From positions 1 to 64,000 of the forward strand of contig OY820905.2 in the NCBI GenBank assembly GCA_963555755.3: 64,000 bases of DNA. The letters run 5' to 3'. The notes below the pieces were generated by a model, which was not told where the DNA came from, made no database searches, and saw nothing but the letters and a program-made list of their open reading frames with translations. Shown here piece after piece: positions 1 through 11,267 of the stretch (position 1 is its first letter; the number at the start of each line of letters is the position of its first letter). Both the position numbers and the translations under genes were made by a program. This DNA comes from Nitrospirales bacterium (lineage in GTDB: Bacteria > Nitrospirota > Nitrospiria > Nitrospirales > UBA8639).

Positions 1-956
1 TCACCGCTGCGCTGGTCCTTGCGATGCTTGATAAAAGCCGGCGGATCGAGAACAACCACATCAAACTTTTCACCGCGCTTCTGCAGTGCTTTTAATGCGT
101 CGATTGCCGGTGATTTTAGCGCCGTAAATTGCTTTTCAAATCCCGCCTTCGCTGCGGACTCGCTGGCCAGGCTTAGCGCGGGCCCGGAACTGTCAACGCA
201 GCACAGCGATGCCGCTCCACCACGAAGCGCCTGTAAACCCCAAGCCCCCAGATAGCTGTAGACATCCAATACACGTTTGTCCCTAGCGTAACTGGCCAGC
301 AGCGAGCGACTCTCCCGATGATCGTAAAACCAACCGGTTTTTTGACCACCCATAACCGGGACCTTAAAAGTCGTCTCGTTTTCGATAATATCGACATACT
401 CTGGCACTTCACCGTGAACAACTTCGGTACGCGATACCAGGCCTTCCGGTTCATTGTCGTTTTCATTGCGCAACAAAATCCCCGCTGGAGCAACCACATC
501 GACCAGTGCGCTCACCAGGATATCGAGCACCGCCATCATTCCAGCCGTAGTCACCTGCATGACCAACACATCGCCATATCGGTCTACAACCAGGCCGGGC
601 AGAGCATCCCCGTCGCCATACACCAGCCGATAAAAAGGCTCTTTATAACAGGATTCTCGCCACTTCAACGCCAACTCCAGTCGCTTGCCTATGAACGGGT
701 AATCCAGCGCCTGGCCTGCTTTTCGACTAAACAAACGGCCACACAGAAGTGTGTGGGGATTGAAGTAAGCGCTCCCCAACACTTCCTGGTTGGCATTGAG
801 CAATGTTCCCACCTGGCCTGCGGCCATCGATTTAAAGCCACTTCGCTCAATATCGATCTCATTACTGTAGACCCAGCAATGGCCATGTTTAATTCGACGA
901 TCGGATTTGGGCTTTAAACTAATAACAGGTAAAGCAGCCGTTTGATGTGAAGGCAT
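1..956 (-). CDS. RlmI-like class I SAM-dependent rRNA methyltransferase, 5' part (runs off window start); inverted copy of 35683..36885
   Basis: Reverse complement matches 35683..36638 with a few substitutions; ATG at 956. Confidence 0.85.
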   Translation of the reverse strand, partial: MPSHQTAALPVISLKPKSDRRIKHGHCWVYSNEIDIERSGFKSMAAGQVGTLLNANQEVLGSAYFNPHTLLCGRLFSRKAGQALDYPFIGKRLELALKWRESCYKEPFYRLVYGDGDALPGLVVDRYGDVLVMQVTTAGMMAVLDILVSALVDVVAPAGILLRNENDNEPEGLVSRTEVVHGEVPEYVDIIENETTFKVPVMGGQKTGWFYDHRESRSLLASYARDKRVLDVYSYLGAWGLQALRGGAASLCCVDSSGPALSLASESAAKAGFEKQFTALKSPAIDALKALQKRGEKFDVVVLDPPAFIKHRKDQRSG

Positions 957-2090
957 AGAGGACTCAGGAGATAAAAACTTACCGGAAAATTATCCTGGAA
1001 AACGCCGTTGGGAGCGAAGAAGAGATGCAAGCTGTTGACAGGCGTAGGAAAATTTTATAACGCGTGCTCACCTCATGGGCGACGTGAGCTGGGGCCCGAT
1101 AAAATACTGATAGCGTACTATATGCATTTCAAAATAGGCATTTGAAAATTTTCCTGGCACACCAATGTTTGGGTGAGCGCTTGGTTGAGCCAAAGCATTT
1201 TCCAGAATCATAGCTCGCCACCATACCTATATCAGCTTGCAAATACAAAGCCTTTAGACCAAGCCCGTCCGTCCAGCCGGTTCAACGTGTCGCGAGGAAC
1301 TGAACTTCTCTAAACAAGCTTCTCTAAACAAAGATTAACTGGAATTACCCGCACCGGGCAATTAGTCTAATAACAATATAGTAATGGATCTATACCTTTG
1401 TTAGGCTTCGCCTTGAACATGCCGGGTTAAGCCCAACACTGAATCCAGGCATTAAATCACCAGTACGGAAACCCATTTCAGCCAAAAGCTGCATCGCATT
1501 ACCGAATGTCATCTCCATACCCCCATAGACAATAGCCAGAAACAAGCCGAAGTAACCCGAAAATTAGCCAAGTCAAAACGTAATCGGGAATAGGAATTTT
1601 AAAAGGCCTTTTTGCCTAAACCGGAAAGTATCAAAGACCCCGTTGCGGGGTCAATTTGCAGACGTTACCGTCTGAAAGGCGGGAGTTCCACGGCGAGATG
1701 GTGCGGCAGGGCCCATTTTTCCAGGATCGGGTCAGCCTGTCGTTCCATTGTGGTGTGGGAGTGGGGGAACTGGGCAAAGGGGGAGTGTCGGCTCCGACAC
1801 TGAACCGGAATCCTGGGGGAGCTTAGGCCGTTTGTAGGAACGGGTCGAGCCGGGCCGGGGCTCGTGGTGGAGCGCGGGTGGGCAAGCCCAGGTGCGCGAG
1901 AATCTTGGCAATCACGGTGGGATCTTCAATGGCGGCGAGGATGGTCAAAGGGCCGCCGCACTGTGGGCAGGTGGTAATGTCGATGGCGAAGACGCGTTTG
2001 AGTAATTGTGCCCAGCTCTTGCGGGCCCGCGTTGAGACCGAGGAGAGCTCGCTGTTTCCATCGGCGAGGTCCGTCGCCGGGTCCGGCCTC
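1..2090. repeat. Left arm of a large inverted duplication (partner ~34550..36638)
   Basis: Position x corresponds to 36639-x; ORF track shows mirrored ORFs with scattered differences. Confidence 0.95.
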
Positions 2091-2140
2091 GCCGGGCACG
2101 ATCTGGGAGCGCAGGGCCGCGTTGGGCGCCAGGACGCCAT
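1586..2140 (-). mobile_element. IS91/ISCR-like element remnant: transposase C-terminus plus oriIS end
   Basis: SWAQLLKRVFAIDITTCPQCGGPLTILAAIEDP..IAKILAHLGLPTRAPPRAPAR; end reads TTTTAAAATTCCTATTCCC on minus strand, like ISCR oriIS. Confidence 0.85.
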
Positions 2141-2998
2141 AGAAACACAGCTGGCGAACGTTCTCCCCATTCTCTTCCGGGTGCCTCCACCTTTGTCCCG
2201 AATCACATGGCTCGGGAACTCGCTCTGCTCAAACAGCCTCGCCAAAGCAGCCAATTCGATACAGAGGCTCCGCCGCGTCTGAAGGCGGGAAGAGAAGTGG
2301 AAAGGAGAACAGGCGGAAGTGCTGAATCGGCGAAACTCTCAACCCAGGATTTGACCGCATGCCGTCATCGGCGGTGTGTCTAGCGGGTTGAAGTCCCGCG
2401 AAAGGAGTTGTTCGTACACCTTTCTAGTACCGGGAAGCAGCGTCTGAGTAATCAGGGGTTGAAGTTTCCCATGGGCAAAGCCGCAGGCCGTAGCGCAAGC
2501 GAACCTAGATGTAGCCTCGTAAACGAATTGGAGATGCCGACCCTGTGGTCAGAAGGGGAAGGCCGCCGTTTGAGGGAGCAGAACGAACACCCACCCTCAG
2601 GATCTTCCGGGGTAGCAGGGATGGCATGTGGCGGAAGAGACACCGTGCAGGACGGGAGACCCGCGACGGTGCTGGCGCAGAACCAGCAACTGAGGCGTAT
2701 AAGGGATACCGAAATCGCTGCGGGCCGTCGTGGGAGTCGGAGGGGTTCATAGTACCGTTGGAGAGCCTGGGACAACACAACCCGGCCCGAGGGAAGGGAC
2801 CCTACTTTGTTCACGTTTCCGACGAGTGGAGGATCAGGGGATTGCCATTGCGCTAACCACCCCGAGCACGATCAGGACACTACAGAGGAAACTATCTCAG
2901 AAGGCCAAGTCTGAATTTGGCTATTGCTTGATGACAGACGCATGCCGCTGGAAGAAGAACATCGGAAAGCCGTGTATGGGAAAACCATACGCACGGAT

Positions 2999-4992
2999 GT
3001 GTGTCCAGGTAAGGCGAGACTGTTCAGTGGGAAGCAAGCCCACCAGGGTAAGAGCCTGAGCCCTGTAGCTTGGATGGCAGCGTGGAGAGAAACCGAGACG
3101 CTGAAGCCCATCGACAAAGCCATCGTAGAGGATGGTGAGCGAGTTCCCGGGCCGTAACGCAAGTGAACGCAGAGGTAGCCTCGAAAGTATGAAACCTCGG
3201 AGGTCGAGTCCCTGTCCGTAGGACGAAGACGGCATGGACAGGCGAACCAAGGCTGAGACGCCTGGCCACTCCGGCGGGGTGAGAGCGACAGCACGGGAGC
3301 AAGGACAGACGACGCAACTGGAGAAGCCCTCCTCGTCCCAGGGAGAAATCCCTGGAGGAAGATCGGCTCTATAACCAGCTCTCTGGGAAGTGAGCCGAAG
3401 ACGAGAGGGTGGCGGAGGGGCTCGTAGGAGCGAGGAAGCAGGGTCATGCCTGTGGAGCAAAGGAGCCCTACTGGCTGTAGGCTGTGATCAACATGGGAGG
3501 CAGGGACGAGATGACAACGGCGTCCATTACACTGCAAGACCTGCGACAGCGGCTCTACGTCAAGGCGAAGGCTGAGAAGCGATGGCGGGTGTGGGGCCTG
3601 TACGTCCACGTGTGCAAAGAGGCGACGCTACGCGCGGCCTATTCGATGGCCAAGAAAAACAACGGAGCCCCCGGCATTGATGGGGTGACGTTTGCTGGCA
3701 TCGAGGCCACGGGGGTGGAGCCCTTTCTTGCACGACTACGGGACGAACTGGTCACGCAGACCTACCGACCGATGCGGAACCGGCACGTGGAGATTTCGAA
3801 AGGCGGTGGACGAGTCCGCGTCTTAGGGATACCCGCGATTCGGGACCGCGTGGTACAGGGAGCGCTCAAGCTCCTGCTGGAACCGATCTTTGAGGCGGAT
3901 TTTCGTGATGGGTCGTATGGGTATCGACCGAAACGGACAGCCCACCAGGCGATTGGCCGGGTGGCTCAGGCGATGGTGCAGAACAAGACGCGAGTGATTG
4001 ATGTGGATCTGGCGGCCTTCTTCGACACGGTGCGGCATGACCGGCTGCTGGCGAAGGTGGCCCGACGCATCCAGGATCCCGCGATCCTGCGGCTGGTGAA
4101 ACTCATCGTCAAGGCGTCCGGCCCGCGTGGGGTGCCTCAAGGGGGTGTGATTTCCCCGCTGCTGGCCAACCTCTATCTCACGGAAGTGGATGAGAGGCTG
4201 GAGCAGCTGAAGGAGACAACCCGGCAGGGCCAGTATACGTATCTCGAGTATGTCCGGTTTGCGGATGACCTCGTCGTGTTAGTGGATGGCTATCGCCGCC
4301 ACGCACAACTGGCGCAGGTTGCGGAGCGGAAGCTGCGAGAGGCGTTGGCCCAATTAGACCTTCAGGTGAATGAGGAGAAGAGCCGAATCGTGGACCTGAG
4401 TCAGGGAGGCAGCTTCGGCTTTCTGGGCTTTGACTTTCGGCGTGTGCGGTCGCGGCGTGGAGTGTGGCGCCCGCAGTACATACCGAAGGTGAAGCGGCGC
4501 ACCGCGTTGCTGCGGAAGCTCAAGGAAGTGTTCCGACGCGGGCAATCCCAGCCGGTGGGACGGATGATCGCCATGATCAATCCGATCGTACGGGGCTGGG
4601 TGAACTACTTCCGGATTGGGCATGCGAGTCGGTGTTTCTCCTACGTGAAGGATTGGGTGGAGCGGAAGGTCCGGCGGCACATGATGCGAGTGCGCCACCG
4701 TCGAGGTTTTGGCTGGAAGAGGTGGAGTAAGGTTTGGCTCTACACGGTACTTGGCTTATATGGAGATTACCGAGTGCGGTACAACGGGTCGGCATGAAAG
4801 TCCTTCCAGGCTGATAGGTCACATAACCCTTGAGGTGAAGCATCCAGGAAAGCCCGGTGCTGGAAATCAGCACGCCGGGTTTGAGGTGGCGGGGACTGGA
4901 ACCGTGACCAGGGGAGTCGGACTGAGGCCCATTCCGAAAGGGGTGGAGGAGCCACCGAACCCTACCGTTGGCGCGCCAGTCCTCGACCCTAC
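2999..4992 (+). mobile_element. Group II intron B (class E-like), inserted at the 3' end of DV of intron A
   Basis: Starts GTGTG at 2999; own DV GAAAGCCCGGTGCTGGAAATCAGCACGCCGGGTT; ends CCCTAC at 4992; host DV/DVI rejoins seamlessly. Confidence 0.9.
3511..4797 (+). CDS. ltrA: Group II intron reverse transcriptase/maturase (no endonuclease domain)
   Basis: [37 protein letters not shown], maturase X domain RGWVNYF. Confidence 0.95.
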   Translation: MTTASITLQDLRQRLYVKAKAEKRWRVWGLYVHVCKEATLRAAYSMAKKNNGAPGIDGVTFAGIEATGVEPFLARLRDELVTQTYRPMRNRHVEISKGGGRVRVLGIPAIRDRVVQGALKLLLEPIFEADFRDGSYGYRPKRTAHQAIGRVAQAMVQNKTRVIDVDLAAFFDTVRHDRLLAKVARRIQDPAILRLVKLIVKASGPRGVPQGGVISPLLANLYLTEVDERLEQLKETTRQGQYTYLEYVRFADDLVVLVDGYRRHAQLAQVAERKLREALAQLDLQVNEEKSRIVDLSQGGSFGFLGFDFRRVRSRRGVWRPQYIPKVKRRTALLRKLKEVFRRGQSQPVGRMIAMINPIVRGWVNYFRIGHASRCFSYVKDWVERKVRRHMMRVRHRRGFGWKRWSKVWLYTVLGLYGDYRVRYNGSA

Positions 4993-6423
4993 TGATGAGG
5001 GGGCGCTGGGAAGTGCTGACTGCTATGGTCCGTGGTAGACGCGTGCGTCGAAGCGTTCGAGAGCAGCTCCATGTATGCACCAGTGCTCTACTCTACCCGT
5101 GACTTAATGCAATTACTCAGGCCTGACCGTTCGCAGTAACAGCAGTATGTCTAGCGGGTTAAAGTCCCGTCCAAGGAATTGTCCGTACACCTTGGTAGTA
5201 TGAGGAAGCGGCGTCGTGGTCACACGGGGTCGTAAGTTTCCACACAGCAAAAGAGCAGGCCGTCACGCAAGTGAACCGATGAGTAGCCTCGTAAACGAAG
5301 TGGAGACGCCGACCCTGTGGTCAGAAGGGGAAGGCCGGTGGAAGGGTGCTGGAATAACGGAAGTGGCATCCCTCGACTCCCGGGGTAGCAAGGACGGCAT
5401 GTTCTGGAAGACGTATCGCCCAGTGCTGGAGACCTGTTTTGGGGGTGGGGAGGCCACCGACCACTGTGTATAAGGCCACGAAATCACAGCGGCCCGGAAC
5501 GGGAGTCGGAGGGGTTCATCGTACCGCGTGAGGCCGAGGGACAACACAACCCCGGTCGAGGGAAGGAACCCTGCTGTGTTCATGCAACCGAAGAGCGGAG
5601 GATCAGGGGATTGCCATGGCGCTAACCACCCCGGAGACGATCAGGACGCTGCAGAGGAAGCTGTATGCCAAGGCCAAGCAAGAACCGGCCTATCGCTTGT
5701 ACGCCCTCTACGACAAGATCAGCCAGGAGGATATCCTCAATCATGCCTGGCGGCTTGTCCGAGCCAATCGAGGCAGCCCCGGTAGTGATGGGATCAGCTT
5801 CGAGGCCATAGAGAGTGGAATCGGGGTAGACACGTTTCTGCGGGAATTGCCCCGTGATCTGCAAGCCAAGACCTACCGAGCCCAACCGGTGCGACGCGTC
5901 ATGAGACTTAAAGCGGACGGCAGTTTCCGTCCGTTGGGGATCCCGACGATCCGAGACCGGGTGACGCAAATGGCCGTGAAACTCATCATCGAGCCGATCT
6001 TTGAAGCCGACTTCTGTACGAATTCGTACGGATTCCGGCCCAAGCGATCGGCCCATGATGCGGTGGACGACATTGCCAAGACGCTCTGGGCCGGCTACAC
6101 CCCAGTCATCGACGCCGACCTGTCGAACTACTTCGACAGTATCCCGCAGGCCAAACTGCTGGCCGTGGTCGCGGAGCGCATTGTGGATGGGGGCATCCTG
6201 CGCCTCATCAAGCAATGGCTCAAAGCCCCGGTGAGCGGCGACGACGCGAACGGCACCCGGAAGAGCGTAGGCGGCGGCAAAGCCAACCGCACGGGGACCC
6301 CGCAAGGTGGGGTGATCTCCCCGCTGCTGGCTAACTGCTCCTTGCACCTTCTGGATCGGACATGGCAACGGCGGCACCTCAAAGACAAACTGCAAGCGCA
6401 TCTCGTGCGCTACGCAGACGACT

Positions 6424-8292
6424 GTGCGCCACGAAGGCGCACAAAAGGACGTCAGTCCTTTGTGCAGCCATGCTGCACAAGAGATGAGGGGAGGCCCCTC
6501 GAAGTCGCTGTACAGGCGGAGGCTTCAAACCACCCATGGCTGCTGCCTTTAAGAGAGGTGGTGGTGAGCGCAATGGGAAAAGGCAGGGCAAGACCCTGTC
6601 AGGTATGGACCGTCGAGTCGAACGTGAGTGAACCGCTGAGGACGTGTCGAAAGCGTAGGGATGACGTCAAAACCGGGGGGGGATCGTTACTCCGGGAGGA
6701 ATCTGGCGGGCACCTGGTTACTGGCCAGATGGCGTCCGGCATGAAGGCGGCGAGAAGGCGGTCCAGGCTCTTGTGGAGAACGTGGGAACCTGTCACCCCG
6801 ATGCGAAGGGAGAAACGCAAGTGGAGGTCCCACAAGCGTGAGAGTACCGAGGCGGGGTACAGGGGCGGAGCAACTCGTAGTAGTGAAGAAGGTTCTGTAA
6901 TGGAGCTGGAGCGAAGGGGTTGCCTTATCGGGCTTGAGGGAAGAGAGCAACCAGCGATGGGAGGACTTTCGTGACTCAGGCCAAGCCATTTCCCATTACC
7001 CAACGTCAGGTGTGGGAAGCCTACAAACGAGTGAAAGCCAATCAGGGTGGGGCTGGGGTGGATGGCCAGACGGTGGCGGACTTTGAGCAGAGGTTGGACA
7101 ACAACCTCTATAAGCTCTGGAACCGGATGGCCTCTGGGAGTTATCGGCCCCTGCCGGTCAAGCGGGTGGAGATTCCCAAGGCAGGCGGCGGCAGCCGTCC
7201 GTTGGGGATCCCGACCGTGGCAGACCGGATTGCGCAAACAGTGGTCAAACAGGCCCTGGAACCGGAAGTGGAAGCCCACTTTCACCCGGATTCCTATGGC
7301 TACCGACCGGGGAAATCAGCGCATCAAGCGATTGGGCAGGCGCGCAGGCGGTGTTGGCGCTATGACTGGGTGGTGGACCTTGACATCAAAGGGTTCTTCG
7401 ACACCATCGACCATGACCGGCTGCTGGCCATGGTGCGTCGGCATACCCAAGCTACGTGGGTGCTGCTCTATATCGAGCGATGGTTGAAAGCTCCGGAGCA
7501 AGTGTTGGACGGGACGGTGCGGGAGCGGACCCGAGGCACGCCGCAAGGGGGTGTCGTCAGTCCGTTGCTGGCGAACCTGTTTCTGCATTATGTCTTCGAT
7601 GCGTGGATGAGGCGGTACTATCCGCACATCCCGTTTGAGCGGTATGCCGACGATGGGGTGTGTCACTGTCGCACCCGGAAACAGGCCGAACATCTGAAAG
7701 GGGCGTTAGCGCGGCGCTTTGCGGATTGGGGGCTTGAACTCCATTCGGAGAAGACCCAGATTGTATACTGCAAAGATGCCGATCGGCGTCTGGGGTATCC
7801 AATCACCGCCTTCGACTTCTTGGGCTACACGTTTCGCCCACGGCGGTCGAAGAACCGGTGGGGGAAATACTTCATCAACTTCAGTCCGGCCATCAGTAAT
7901 AAGGCGGGGAAGGCGATCCGCCAGGTCGTGCGGAGCTGGCAGCTCCATCTGCGGAGCGATAAAGCGCTCGACGATCTGGCGCGGATGTTCAATGCGAAGA
8001 TACGCGGGTGGGTGACCTATTACAGTGCCTTCTACCAATCGGCGTTGTACCGGTCCCTCCGGCACATCGATCGCAAACTTGTGCTGTGGGCCACTCGCAA
8101 GTTCAAGCGGCTGCGAGGCCACAAACGGCGAGCCGATCAGTGGTTGCGACGCATTGCGTGTCGGCAGCCCAATCTGTTTGCTCACTGGCGGTTGGTGTAT
8201 GGACAGGCTAGATAAGAAGAGCCGGATGAGCGGAGACGTTCACGTCCGGTTCTGTGAGCGCCTCGAGGGGTGGTTCCTCGGGGCGACTCGAC
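6424..8292 (+). mobile_element. Group II intron D (bacterial class D, RmInt1-like) inserted at the YADD motif of intron C RT
   Basis: GTGCG start at 6424; DV GAGCCGGATGAGCGGAGACGTTCACGTCCGGTTC; ends ACTCGAC at 8292. Confidence 0.92.
6971..8215 (+). CDS. ltrA: Group II intron RT/maturase, class D type, intact
   Basis: [55 protein letters not shown]. Confidence 0.95.
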
Positions 8293-8363
8293 TCGTCGTG
8301 ATGTGTCGAAAAGATGTAGAGGAACCGCTAAAGGTCGTGCGCCACGTACTGGACCAACTGGGC

Positions 8364-9693
8364 GGGCCTGTAAGATAAACTGTGTAACTGGTATCATGAC
8401 GGATCCATTGAATAAGGAGGACTGATGACCAGAGCCAAGACCCCAAGCAAAACCGATGTGCTGTTAGATGAGCTATTGGAAGGGTGTGCGTCACCCGAAG
8501 ACATATTCGGCACACATGGGCTGGTGAAGCGTCTCACGAAACGGCTCGTAGAACGCGCCCTGCGGGCAGAACTGACCGAGCATTTGGGCTATGCCCCTCA
8601 TGCCCCTGAGGGCCGTGGATCCGGCAATGCCCGCAATGGGAGCACGTCGAAAACGGTGCAAACGGCCCACGGGGATCTCCCGCTCCAGGTGCCCCGTGAT
8701 CGTCAAGGCCGCTTTGAGCCGCTGTTGGTGCCCAAACGCCAACGGCGCTTGGAAGGGTTTGATGAGAAGGTCCTGGCGTTGTATGCCCGAGGGCTGACGA
8801 CTCGCGACATTCAAGGGCATCTGGAAGAACTCTATGACGTGGAGGTGTCGCCCACGCTCATTTCGGCCATCACTGATGCGGTGTTGGAGGATGTGCGCAT
8901 CTGGCAGAGTCGGCCCTTAGATGCTGTGTATCCGATTCTGTACTTCGATTGTCTGTTTGTGAAGTCTCGGCAGGAGGGCGTCGTTAAGAATAAAGCCGTG
9001 TATGTGGCCTTAGGGGTGAATCTACAGGGCGAGAAAGAACTCCTGGGGCTCTGGATCAGTGAGACCGAAGGGGCCAAGTTCTGGCTGTCGATCTTCACCG
9101 AACTCCAGCAGCGCGGGGTCCGGGATTGTTTTGTGGCTTGCGTCGATGGGCTGGGGGGCTTGCCAGAAGCCTTGGAGACGGTGTTCCCACACACCCAGGT
9201 GCAACTGTGCATTGTGCATAAGGTACGGCAATCCTTGCGGTATGTGGTGTGGAAAGAGCGACGAGCCGTGGCGCGGGATCTGCGAGCCCTCTATGGCGCC
9301 GCGACGTTGTCGGAGGCGGAAAGCGCGTTGGAGACATTTGCCGCCAGGTGGGATGCGAAATATCCGACGATCAGTGCGACGTGGCGACGGCATTGGAGTC
9401 GGCTCACGATCTTTTTTGATTATCCCCCAGAAATCAGGAAAGCCATCTATACCACCAATGCGATCGAATCGGTGAATTTTTCGTTACGCAAAGTCCTGAA
9501 AAGTCGGGGAGCCTTTCCGACAGATGAATCAATTCTGAAGGTGCTGTATTTAGGGATGCAGCGGATTGCGAAGAAATGGACGATGCCCATTCCGCACTGG
9601 AAGCGGGCTCTCAACCAATTCGCCATGCTCTTAGGAGATCGAGTGCCAACAATCTAGCCCACAATTCAGTTACACAGTTAACTTGACAAGCCC
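8364..9693 (+). mobile_element. IS256-family element
   Basis: Imperfect 26-bp TIRs GGGCCTGTAAGATAAACTGTGTAACT / AGTTACACAGTTAACTTGACAAGCCC; no target duplication. Confidence 0.9.
8425..9657 (+). CDS. IS256 family transposase
   Basis: VPRDRQGRFEP, WQSRPLDAVYPILYFD, QLCIVH, IYTTNAIES. Confidence 0.95.
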   Translation: MTRAKTPSKTDVLLDELLEGCASPEDIFGTHGLVKRLTKRLVERALRAELTEHLGYAPHAPEGRGSGNARNGSTSKTVQTAHGDLPLQVPRDRQGRFEPLLVPKRQRRLEGFDEKVLALYARGLTTRDIQGHLEELYDVEVSPTLISAITDAVLEDVRIWQSRPLDAVYPILYFDCLFVKSRQEGVVKNKAVYVALGVNLQGEKELLGLWISETEGAKFWLSIFTELQQRGVRDCFVACVDGLGGLPEALETVFPHTQVQLCIVHKVRQSLRYVVWKERRAVARDLRALYGAATLSEAESALETFAARWDAKYPTISATWRRHWSRLTIFFDYPPEIRKAIYTTNAIESVNFSLRKVLKSRGAFPTDESILKVLYLGMQRIAKKWTMPIPHWKRALNQFAMLLGDRVPTI

Positions 9694-11267
9694 CCATTAA
9701 CACTGCAAGACCTGCGACAGCGGCTCTACGTCAAGGCGAAGGCTGAGAAGCGATGGCGGGTGTGGGGCCTATACGTCCACGTGTGCAAAGAGGCGACGCT
9801 CCGCGCGGCCTATGCGATGGCGAAGAAGAACAACGGGGCCCCCGGCATTGATGGGGTGACGTTTGTTGCCATCGAGGCCACGGGGGTGGAGCCCTTTCTT
9901 GCACGACTACGGGACGAACTGGTCACGCAGACCTACCGACCGATGCGGAACCGGCCCGTGGAGATTTCGAAAGGCGGTGGGCGAGTCCGCGTCTTAGGGA
10001 TACCCGCGATTCGGGACCGCGTGGTACAGGGAGCGCTCAAGCTCCTGCTGGAACCGATCTTTGAGGCGGATTTTCGTGATGGGTCGTATGGGTATCGACC
10101 GAAACGGACAGCCCACCAGGCGATTGGCCGGGTGGCTCAGGCGATGGTGCAGAACAAGACGCGAGTGATTGATGTGGATCTGGCGGCCTTCTTCGACACG
10201 GTGCGGCATGACCGGCTGCTGGCGAAGGTGGCCCGACGCATCCAGGATCCCGCGATCCTGCGGCTGGTGAAACTCATCGTCAAGGCGTCCGGCCCGCGTG
10301 GGGTGCCTCAAGGGGGCGTGATCTCTCCGCTGCTGGCCAACCTCTATCTCACGGAAGTGGATGAGATGCTGGAGCAGCTGAAGGAGACAACCCGGCAGGG
10401 CCAGTATACGTATCTCGAGTATGCCCGGTTTGCGGATGATCTCGTCGTGTTAGTGGATGGCTATCGCCGCCACGCCCGACTGGCGCAGGTCGCGGAGCGG
10501 AAGCTGCGGGAGGCGTTGGCCCAATTAGACCTTCAGGTGAATGAGGCGAAGAGCCGGATCGTGGACCTGAGTCAGGGAGGGAGCTTCGGGTTCTTGGGCT
10601 TTGACTTCCGGCGTGTGCGGTCGCGGCGTGGGGTGTGGCGCCCGCAGTACATACCGAAGGTGAAGCGGCGCACCGCGTTGCTGCGGAAGCTCAAGGCAGT
10701 GTTCCGACGCGGACAATCCCAGCCGGTGGGACGGATGATCGCGATGATCAATCCGATCGTACGGGGCTGGGTGAACGACTTTCGGATTGGGCATGCGAGT
10801 CGGTGTTTATCCTACGTGAAGGATTGGGTGGAGCGGAAGGTCCGGCGGCACATGATGCGAGTGCGCCACCGTCGAGGTTTTGGCTGGAAGAGGTGGAGTA
10901 AGGTTTGGCTCTACACGGTACTCGGCTTATATGGAGATTACCGAGTGCGGTACAACGGGTCGGCATGAAAGTCCTTCCAGGCTGAGAGGTCACATAACCC
11001 TTGAGGTGAAGCATCCAGGAAAGCCCGGTGCTGGAAATCAGCACGCCGGGTTTGAGGTGGCGGGGACTGGAACCGTGACCAGGGGAGTCGGATTGAGGCC
11101 CACTCTGAAAGGGGTGGAGGAGCCACCGACCCCTACCGTTGGCGCGCCAGTCCTCGACCCTACTGATGAGGGGGCGCTGGGAAGTGCTGACTGCTATGGT
11201 CCGTGGTAGACGCGTGCGTCGAAGCGTTCGAGAGTAGCTCCAGGTGAGCACCAGTGCTCTACTCTAC
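9694..11267 (+). mobile_element. Second, 5'-truncated copy of intron B (to 11163) followed by host DVI (to 11267)
   Basis: Near-identical to 3523..5096; RT ORF 9760..10968 lacks its start. Confidence 0.9.

Follow-up and report, generated by a model that had tools for sequence, protein, structure and literature searches.

A class D group II intron inserted next to YADD codons in the reverse transcriptases of other introns in a Nitrospirales genome

Group II introns that interrupt the genes of other group II introns raise the question of what guides them there, and of whether an intron that reads the active-site codons of reverse transcriptases (RTs) would also read its own. Such an intron, here called D, lies in a stretch of 64,000 nucleotides of a Nitrospirales bacterium (contig OY820905.2, positions 1 to 64,000; hereafter the window), the first 11 kb of which contain nested group II introns according to Rfam. 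An earlier note, written from the letters of the sequence, had proposed that D is a specialist for RT active-site codons, and that mismatches of its guide to its own motif (YADDG) and to that of a neighbouring intron, B (FADD), hint at self-avoidance or escape. From the analysis reported here we hold with high confidence that D is an intact class D intron, all three copies of which stand behind YADD codons of other introns' RTs, likely guided there by base pairing with the DNA. The features of the locus are listed in Table 1.

Table 1. Positions of intron D, its guide and target sites, and neighbouring features in the window.
Feature	Position	Strand	Remarks
FADD codons of intron B, unoccupied	4258-4271	+	4/5 and 6/7 pairs with the guide of D, +1 matched
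5' part of the RT gene of intron C (host)	5616-6423	+	ORF start 5616; closes with YADD codons plus one base
IBS2	6411-6415	+	Tyr codon and bases 1-2 of Ala codon; 5/5 pairs with EBS2
Spacer, unpaired	6416	+	third position of Ala codon, four-fold degenerate
IBS1	6417-6423	+	two Asp codons and base 1 of next codon; 6/7 pairs with EBS1, mismatch at -2
Intron D	6424-8292	+	1869 nt, class D / IIB group II intron, ends GTGCG...AC; basis, three identical copies with these ends
Delta-prime (C)	6643	+	partner delta G6681
EBS2 GCGTA	6653-6657	+	bulge in fold; aligns with EBS2 of RmInt1
EBS1 hairpin	6673-6695	+	stem 6673-6678 / 6690-6695, loop 6679-6689 (11 nt)
EBS1 GATCGTT	6682-6688	+	loop position; usual form in the lineage AGTCGTT
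EBS3 (A)	6744	+	pairs with T at +1; unpaired probability 0.96; aligns with G of RmInt1
RT/maturase encoded by intron D	6971-8215	+	414 aa; Pfam RVT_1 and GIIM only
YADDG codons of intron D itself	7643-7656	+	G at -1 and +1 mispair with EBS1 and EBS3
3' exon, RT gene of intron C continued	8293-8363	+	IBS3 T8293; frame reads FVVMCRK...; cut after 71 nt
IS256-family element	8364-9693	+	truncates host intron C; Transposase_mut, terminal inverted repeats

Rfam matches RF01999 (6486-6604) and RF00029 (8217-8292) fall within D, and its protein lacks an endonuclease domain, the two Pfam domains in Table 1 being the only ones. In a quick tree the protein groups with that of RmInt1 in an ingroup of 70 rows, with an SH-aLRT value of 100 against four other RTs of the genome. 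D belongs to class D (IIB3) and is an endonuclease-less group II intron. It splits the RT gene of intron C (RVT_1 match at residues 99-269) after the first base of the codon next to YADD, and excision in silico restores ...VRYADDFVVMCRK... in that gene. Four uninterrupted sister copies of the host RT, with 92-96% DNA identity, agree with the 3' exon up to 8363. Since the exon ends there at the IS256 element, this particular host copy is dead, whereas two host RTs of D still have open frames.

In two public sequencing runs D was assembled as a single contig of 1870 nt (6424-8293), which is what a repeat with different flanks should give. No exon-joined contig was found in four runs (X8, X10, X1 and X5, two of them RNA), where contigs cannot show an absence of splicing. 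We regard the boundaries, structure, pairing and insertion sites of D as established, and infer its splicing, mobility route and recent activity.

The 5' exon at 6411-6423 reads TACGC-A-GACGACT, as the earlier note had it. The note had placed EBS2 and EBS1 by analogy to RmInt1 and had counted five of five and, with G-U pairs included, six of seven paired positions; both counts held, EBS1-IBS1 comprising two G-U pairs. Both sites also align with the EBS sites of RmInt1, fetched from Sinorhizobium meliloti 1021 pSymA (locus L231), the EBS1/IBS1 of which were taken as given in PMC4075523. The note's proposal that the unpaired spacer falls on the wobble base of the Ala codon fits the genomic targets of D, which have A, C and G at this position, and all four bases occur there among the targets of 72 relatives.

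When domain I was folded, the 11-nt loop with EBS1 had unpaired probabilities of 0.55-0.96 and the bulge with EBS2 of 0.51-0.84, neither site being in a paired stem. Short local folds gave no signal above shuffles (z 0.4-0.8), and the structure is supported by the fold of the whole domain together with covariation. The four helices that flank the EBS covary among 17 relatives, with 97.9% of cells paired and changes on both sides in 16 of 25 pairs; none of 500 shuffles reached this level and slid controls reached 32-47%, the controls being biased in favour of the structure of D, from which the helices were taken. For the stem of the EBS1 hairpin, 100% of cells were paired among the relatives and five of six pairs had a compensatory change. 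The delta-delta' contact (G6681-C6643) was paired in 13 of 17 relatives (AU in 7, CG in 6) and unpaired in 4. Natural variation gave the most stringent test: among 22 relatives whose guides differ, this loop position is complementary to the relative's own 5' exon at 135 of 154 positions, against a mean of 69 and a maximum of 99 in 10,000 shuffles. Of 20 relatives that have other targets, 17 make a Watson-Crick pair between +1 and the position that corresponds to A6744, and A6744 was therefore named EBS3. EBS1, EBS2, EBS3 and delta-delta' were all located in D, the latter two as additions to the earlier note, as in the IIB-like RNA of introns known to home to YADD codons.

Among relatives the usual guide is GCGTA / AGTCGTT, in which a G stands opposite each third position that may be C or T, and C and T are about equally common at -11, -5 and -2. 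As this G faces the C/T third positions of the Tyr and Asp codons, a single guide would suffice for most of the ways in which the motif can be spelt. EBS2 would read Tyr-Ala, the spacer would skip the third position of the Ala codon, EBS1 would read Asp-Asp plus one base, and EBS3 the base that follows. The variant GATCGTT in D pairs with C or T at -1 and only with T at -2, where it mispairs with two of its three targets. In the route inferred for the published introns B.th.I3 and M.a.I5, which D likely shares, spliced intron RNA would pair with the YADD codons in DNA and then reverse-splice into them. D would in this way live as a parasite of other retroelements, on a site that is nearly invariant, abundant and cheap for the cell.

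The three copies of D in the genome are identical and lie in three different RT genes in the same codon phase, each one base past YADD codons. Their 5' exons end in TACGCAGACGACT, TATGCCGATGATC and TACGCGGATGACT, with T as the next base in each. The genome holds 33 listed RT motifs and one further RT without such a motif; in the RT-like gene at G000:C1:3614724-3615803 a YxDD motif was not recognisable in the frame examined. The three host types of D comprise 12 YADD sites, 3 of them occupied.

Could the YADD match be a chance of where a generalist intron happened to land? When the genome was scored against the EBS, 803 sites with at most one unpaired position of 13 were counted, which would speak for such an intron. 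However, RT motifs make up only 11 of these sites, and all three copies are in RT motifs, for which p is about 2e-6 under a uniform choice among the 803; together with the relatives described below, which behave likewise, this effectively refutes a generalist landing, to which we give next to no credence. The 792 non-RT sites pair about as well as the RT sites by the scoring used here, so pairing as scored is not sufficient for the specificity of D. Protein contacts, or a cost or intolerance of some wobble pairs, must presumably add to it. RmInt1 requires T-15 and G+4. As judged from GC skew, all three copies of D are in the lagging-template orientation, as are 10 of the 12 YADD sites.

The target choice of relatives was surveyed in two collections. 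A GTDB set yielded 80 loci, 34 of them with this guide and a callable 5' end; 30 of the 34, with 25 distinct exons among them, lie one base past (Y/F)(A/G)DD, three after damaged variants and one elsewhere. A metagenome scan, in which the guide pattern alone was the query and which was blind to the exon, yielded 121 loci. After removal of 10 without upstream DNA, 23 without a called start and 5 with a short exon or a weak start, 83 were scored: in 73 the 5' exon closes one base after (Y/F)xDD, in 8 it closes with a near variant, and in 2 it is unrelated. Among the metagenome loci with at least 300 nt of upstream sequence, 36 of 44 match an RT by blastp. Introns with the same guide thus sit for the most part one base past (Y/F)xDD, and the surveys oppose what the earlier note had named as evidence against itself, namely homologues with the same EBS in non-RT genes. 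The specialist reading of D is borne out by its own three copies and by both surveys, the habit as such having been published before.

A close copy of D was absent from the 41 related genomes searched, where the best identity was 66-67%, and viral contigs contained one relative of D. Some of the YADD-type hosts (L002, L030, L040, L072, L117, L130, L151 and L159) have only a weak match to group II RTs or none; these may be other classes of RT, as reported for the host of B.th.I3. In six loci of one Gammaproteobacteria MAG (L018, L021, L023, L024, L033 and L034) an extra element separates the 5' RNA from the ORF, near intron position 458. The 5' flank of L181 resembles the 3' end of a different group II intron, which points to a tandem insertion.

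According to PMC2504315, B.th.I3, M.a.I5, UA.I3 and P.l.I2 are 1.8-kb, En-minus, B-like introns, 58-67% identical to each other over their full length, that insert at RYADD codons; their organisms include Bacillus thuringiensis israelensis (B.th.I3), Methanosarcina acetivorans (M.a.I5) and Photorhabdus luminescens (P.l.I2). YADD homing itself is therefore already published in that source, and D adds a member. D resembles the B.th.I3 kind in its length of about 1.8 kb, its B-like structure, its En-minus protein and its insertion one base past the YADD of RTs. Direct comparison was made with L217, a B.th.I3-like element of a B. thuringiensis plasmid, recognised by its exon, host species and RT host and not by name, M.a.I5, UA.I3 and P.l.I2 being known by description. 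D and L217 share 60.2% DNA identity, within the published range, and 56.7% protein identity. L217 carries exactly the published exon, with EBS2 GCGTA, EBS1 AGTCGTT and the junction phase of D. D differs from it in its EBS1, where tolerance at the third position of the second Asp codon is traded for tolerance of C/T at -1. Unlike the B.th.I3 kind, D is also a single element caught in three different host RTs of one genome. The locus is hence a clean example of the published habit, and with its three host types and natural EBS1 variant D is a ready system to measure how a guide RNA reads a degenerate protein motif.

RmInt1 of S. meliloti (class D, IIB3) shares with D the 5 + 1 + 7 architecture plus EBS3, an En-minus protein (54.5% identity) and the codon phase, its target being FIDE plus one base. 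It differs in its EBS2 (ATGAA), EBS1 (TTTCGTC) and EBS3 (G), and in that its target is not an RT; PMC5894124 names this target as ISRm2011-2, an IS630-family element. The nested clusters of M. acetivorans are described in PMC4424553 and PMC2882425, which summarise Dai and Zimmerly 2003, as products of repeated site-specific homing into group II introns, with arrays outside host genes. In contrast to these, the present cluster is in a bacterial genome, has a second invader, B, that uses domain V, and carries an IS256 rearrangement.

Intron B (2999-4992) is inserted where domain V of intron A ends, and the genome carries about 13 near-identical copies of it, some of which are in tandem. A second IS256 copy is found at G000:C1:1249252-1250583 (C1:1.25 Mb), and the two IS256 copies adjoin the two halves of one copy of B, nucleotides 514-1994 from window position 9684 and nucleotides 1-512 up to C1:1250583. 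The arrangement points to a rearrangement made by the insertion sequence, which would also have severed the 3' half of intron C.

Does the FADD motif protect B from D by breaking the pairing with EBS2? None of 15 B sites is occupied, against 3 of 12 YADD sites, and FADD accounts for just 3 of the 73 metagenome targets, both of which would agree with an escape, although the difference in occupancy is not significant (p = 0.075). On the other hand, 6 of the 25 distinct GTDB targets are FADD, and in one FADD target (L053) the invaded host is 61% identical to the RT of B. The copy of B at window position 10429 differs from the guide of D by a single mismatch in 13, and RTs carry FADD irrespective of D. 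As FADD hosts do serve as targets, the escape suggested in the earlier note is unsupported, and we regard it as improbable.

For D's own motif the outcome was mixed. On the 5' exon alone the own motif equals the real target in pairing, at 11 of 12 positions each (5/5 and 6/7), so this part of the proposed mismatch fell away. What sets the own motif apart is the place of its mismatch, at -1 instead of -2, together with a further mispair of +1 with EBS3. Mispairs at both -1 and +1 were found in 44 of 56 own motifs (24 of 25 distinct GTDB and 20 of 31 metagenome members), and in only 4 of 38 scorable real targets (2 of 22 GTDB and 2 of 16 metagenome). Own motifs are therefore the poorer targets, which may be read as an evolved device against insertion into D itself and close kin. 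Such a device would also agree with the finding that none of the three copies of D is invaded and with L003, the one locus where a close relative has been invaded and where neither mismatch applies; here a YADD-guided intron lies within another one with a near-identical guide, and the host protein is 80% identical to that of the invader. Nevertheless, 0 of 3 against 3 of 10 occupied sites is not a significant difference (p = 0.53), and for 11 of the 31 metagenome members no more than one mismatch separates the guide from the member's own motif. Class D RTs are moreover invaded: L084 was placed in a class D host at a YADDG site with both mismatches present, and 6 of the 73 metagenome targets resemble class D RTs by motif, five of them with blastp support. 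YADD-A/G is also found in RmInt1 and further class D introns that are aimed elsewhere, and so need not be an adaptation; an unrelated RT of this genome likewise has FADDA. We consider an evolved device doubtful, and the self-avoidance hinted at in the earlier note stands as a leaky tendency, the own motif being poorer but unprotected. YADD-A/G could be an old adaptation if YADD homing is ancestral. The L003 locus (759-4459) is a three-level nest, in which the invaded YADD-guided intron itself sits after codons that read YAGD.

How old, then, is YADD homing within class D? A tree of 70 class D proteins, 33 of them YADD-guided, was built after near-duplicates and loci without a readable 5' RNA had been left out. 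All trees were quick ones (LG+G4), with sampling seeded on D and an unresolved base. On the protein tree the YADD guide changes 12 times, and 8 of these changes are forced by branches with at least 95% support. That the YADD-homers form one exclusive clade was ruled out by AU tests on proteins (lnL 345 lower, p 7e-6) and on RNA without the EBS columns (lnL 124 lower, p 6e-4). Introns with other guides nest among the YADD-guided ones, and RmInt1 falls in a 98% clade with the B.th.I3-like element.

In parsimony the other guides were coded as 27 separate states, a multi-state coding that favours the single repeated state, YADD; the YADD guide was reconstructed at all nodes of at least 10 rows, although at the root one other state was equally parsimonious. 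Two extra steps are needed if the guide is kept off nodes of at least 60 rows, 5 if it is kept off those of at least 30 and 8 for those of at least 15. In 11 sister contrasts the branch on the YADD side was the shorter one 10 times, with two marginal cases. A scattered guide might also arise through a swap of domain I or the guide region, which is opposed by the several sister pairs common to the RNA and protein trees and by the EBS flanks, the sequence of which goes with the sister in 6 of 7 pairs, L039 being one real chimera. The YADD guides may alternatively have become scattered by convergence on an optimal guide.

The targets of the retargeted lines are IS66, IS5 and IS3 transposases (Pfam) and, as we presume from the motif, an IS6 element. 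Most of these lines stay in codon phase 1, L066 and L074 being exceptions. As IS-aimed introns, RmInt1 among them, nest among YADD-guided ones, most of class D may descend from YADD-homers. We lean slightly towards this reading, in which the 12-base guide and register would have been kept on the deep branches, and RmInt1 and the homers to IS3, IS5, IS6, IS66 and IS630 would be repeated independent retargetings, most of which kept the phase that puts the spacer on a third codon position. If YADD homing is indeed ancestral, parasitism on other retroelements was the starting point of a whole class of introns, and RmInt1, the model intron, is derived and retargeted. The ancestral status is possibly new: no prior statement of it was found in the literature searched, which consisted of main texts with few subscription papers.

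Among L031, L036, L041, L048 and L218, introns that target IS66 one base after K-Y-x-D-H form the sister group of a YADD-homer, and in the RNA tree a YADD-homer of S. meliloti stands beside the IS66-homers with 99% support. The IS66 and YADD targets of this sister pair differ at few bases, a natural retargeting step, and such pairs illustrate how retargeting can proceed through a few changes in the guide. The locus L039 (1991-4388) is a chimera, in which the 5' RNA and guide fit a non-RT exon and the 3' flank holds the remainder of a group II RT; recombination inside a twintron likely joined one guide to another protein.
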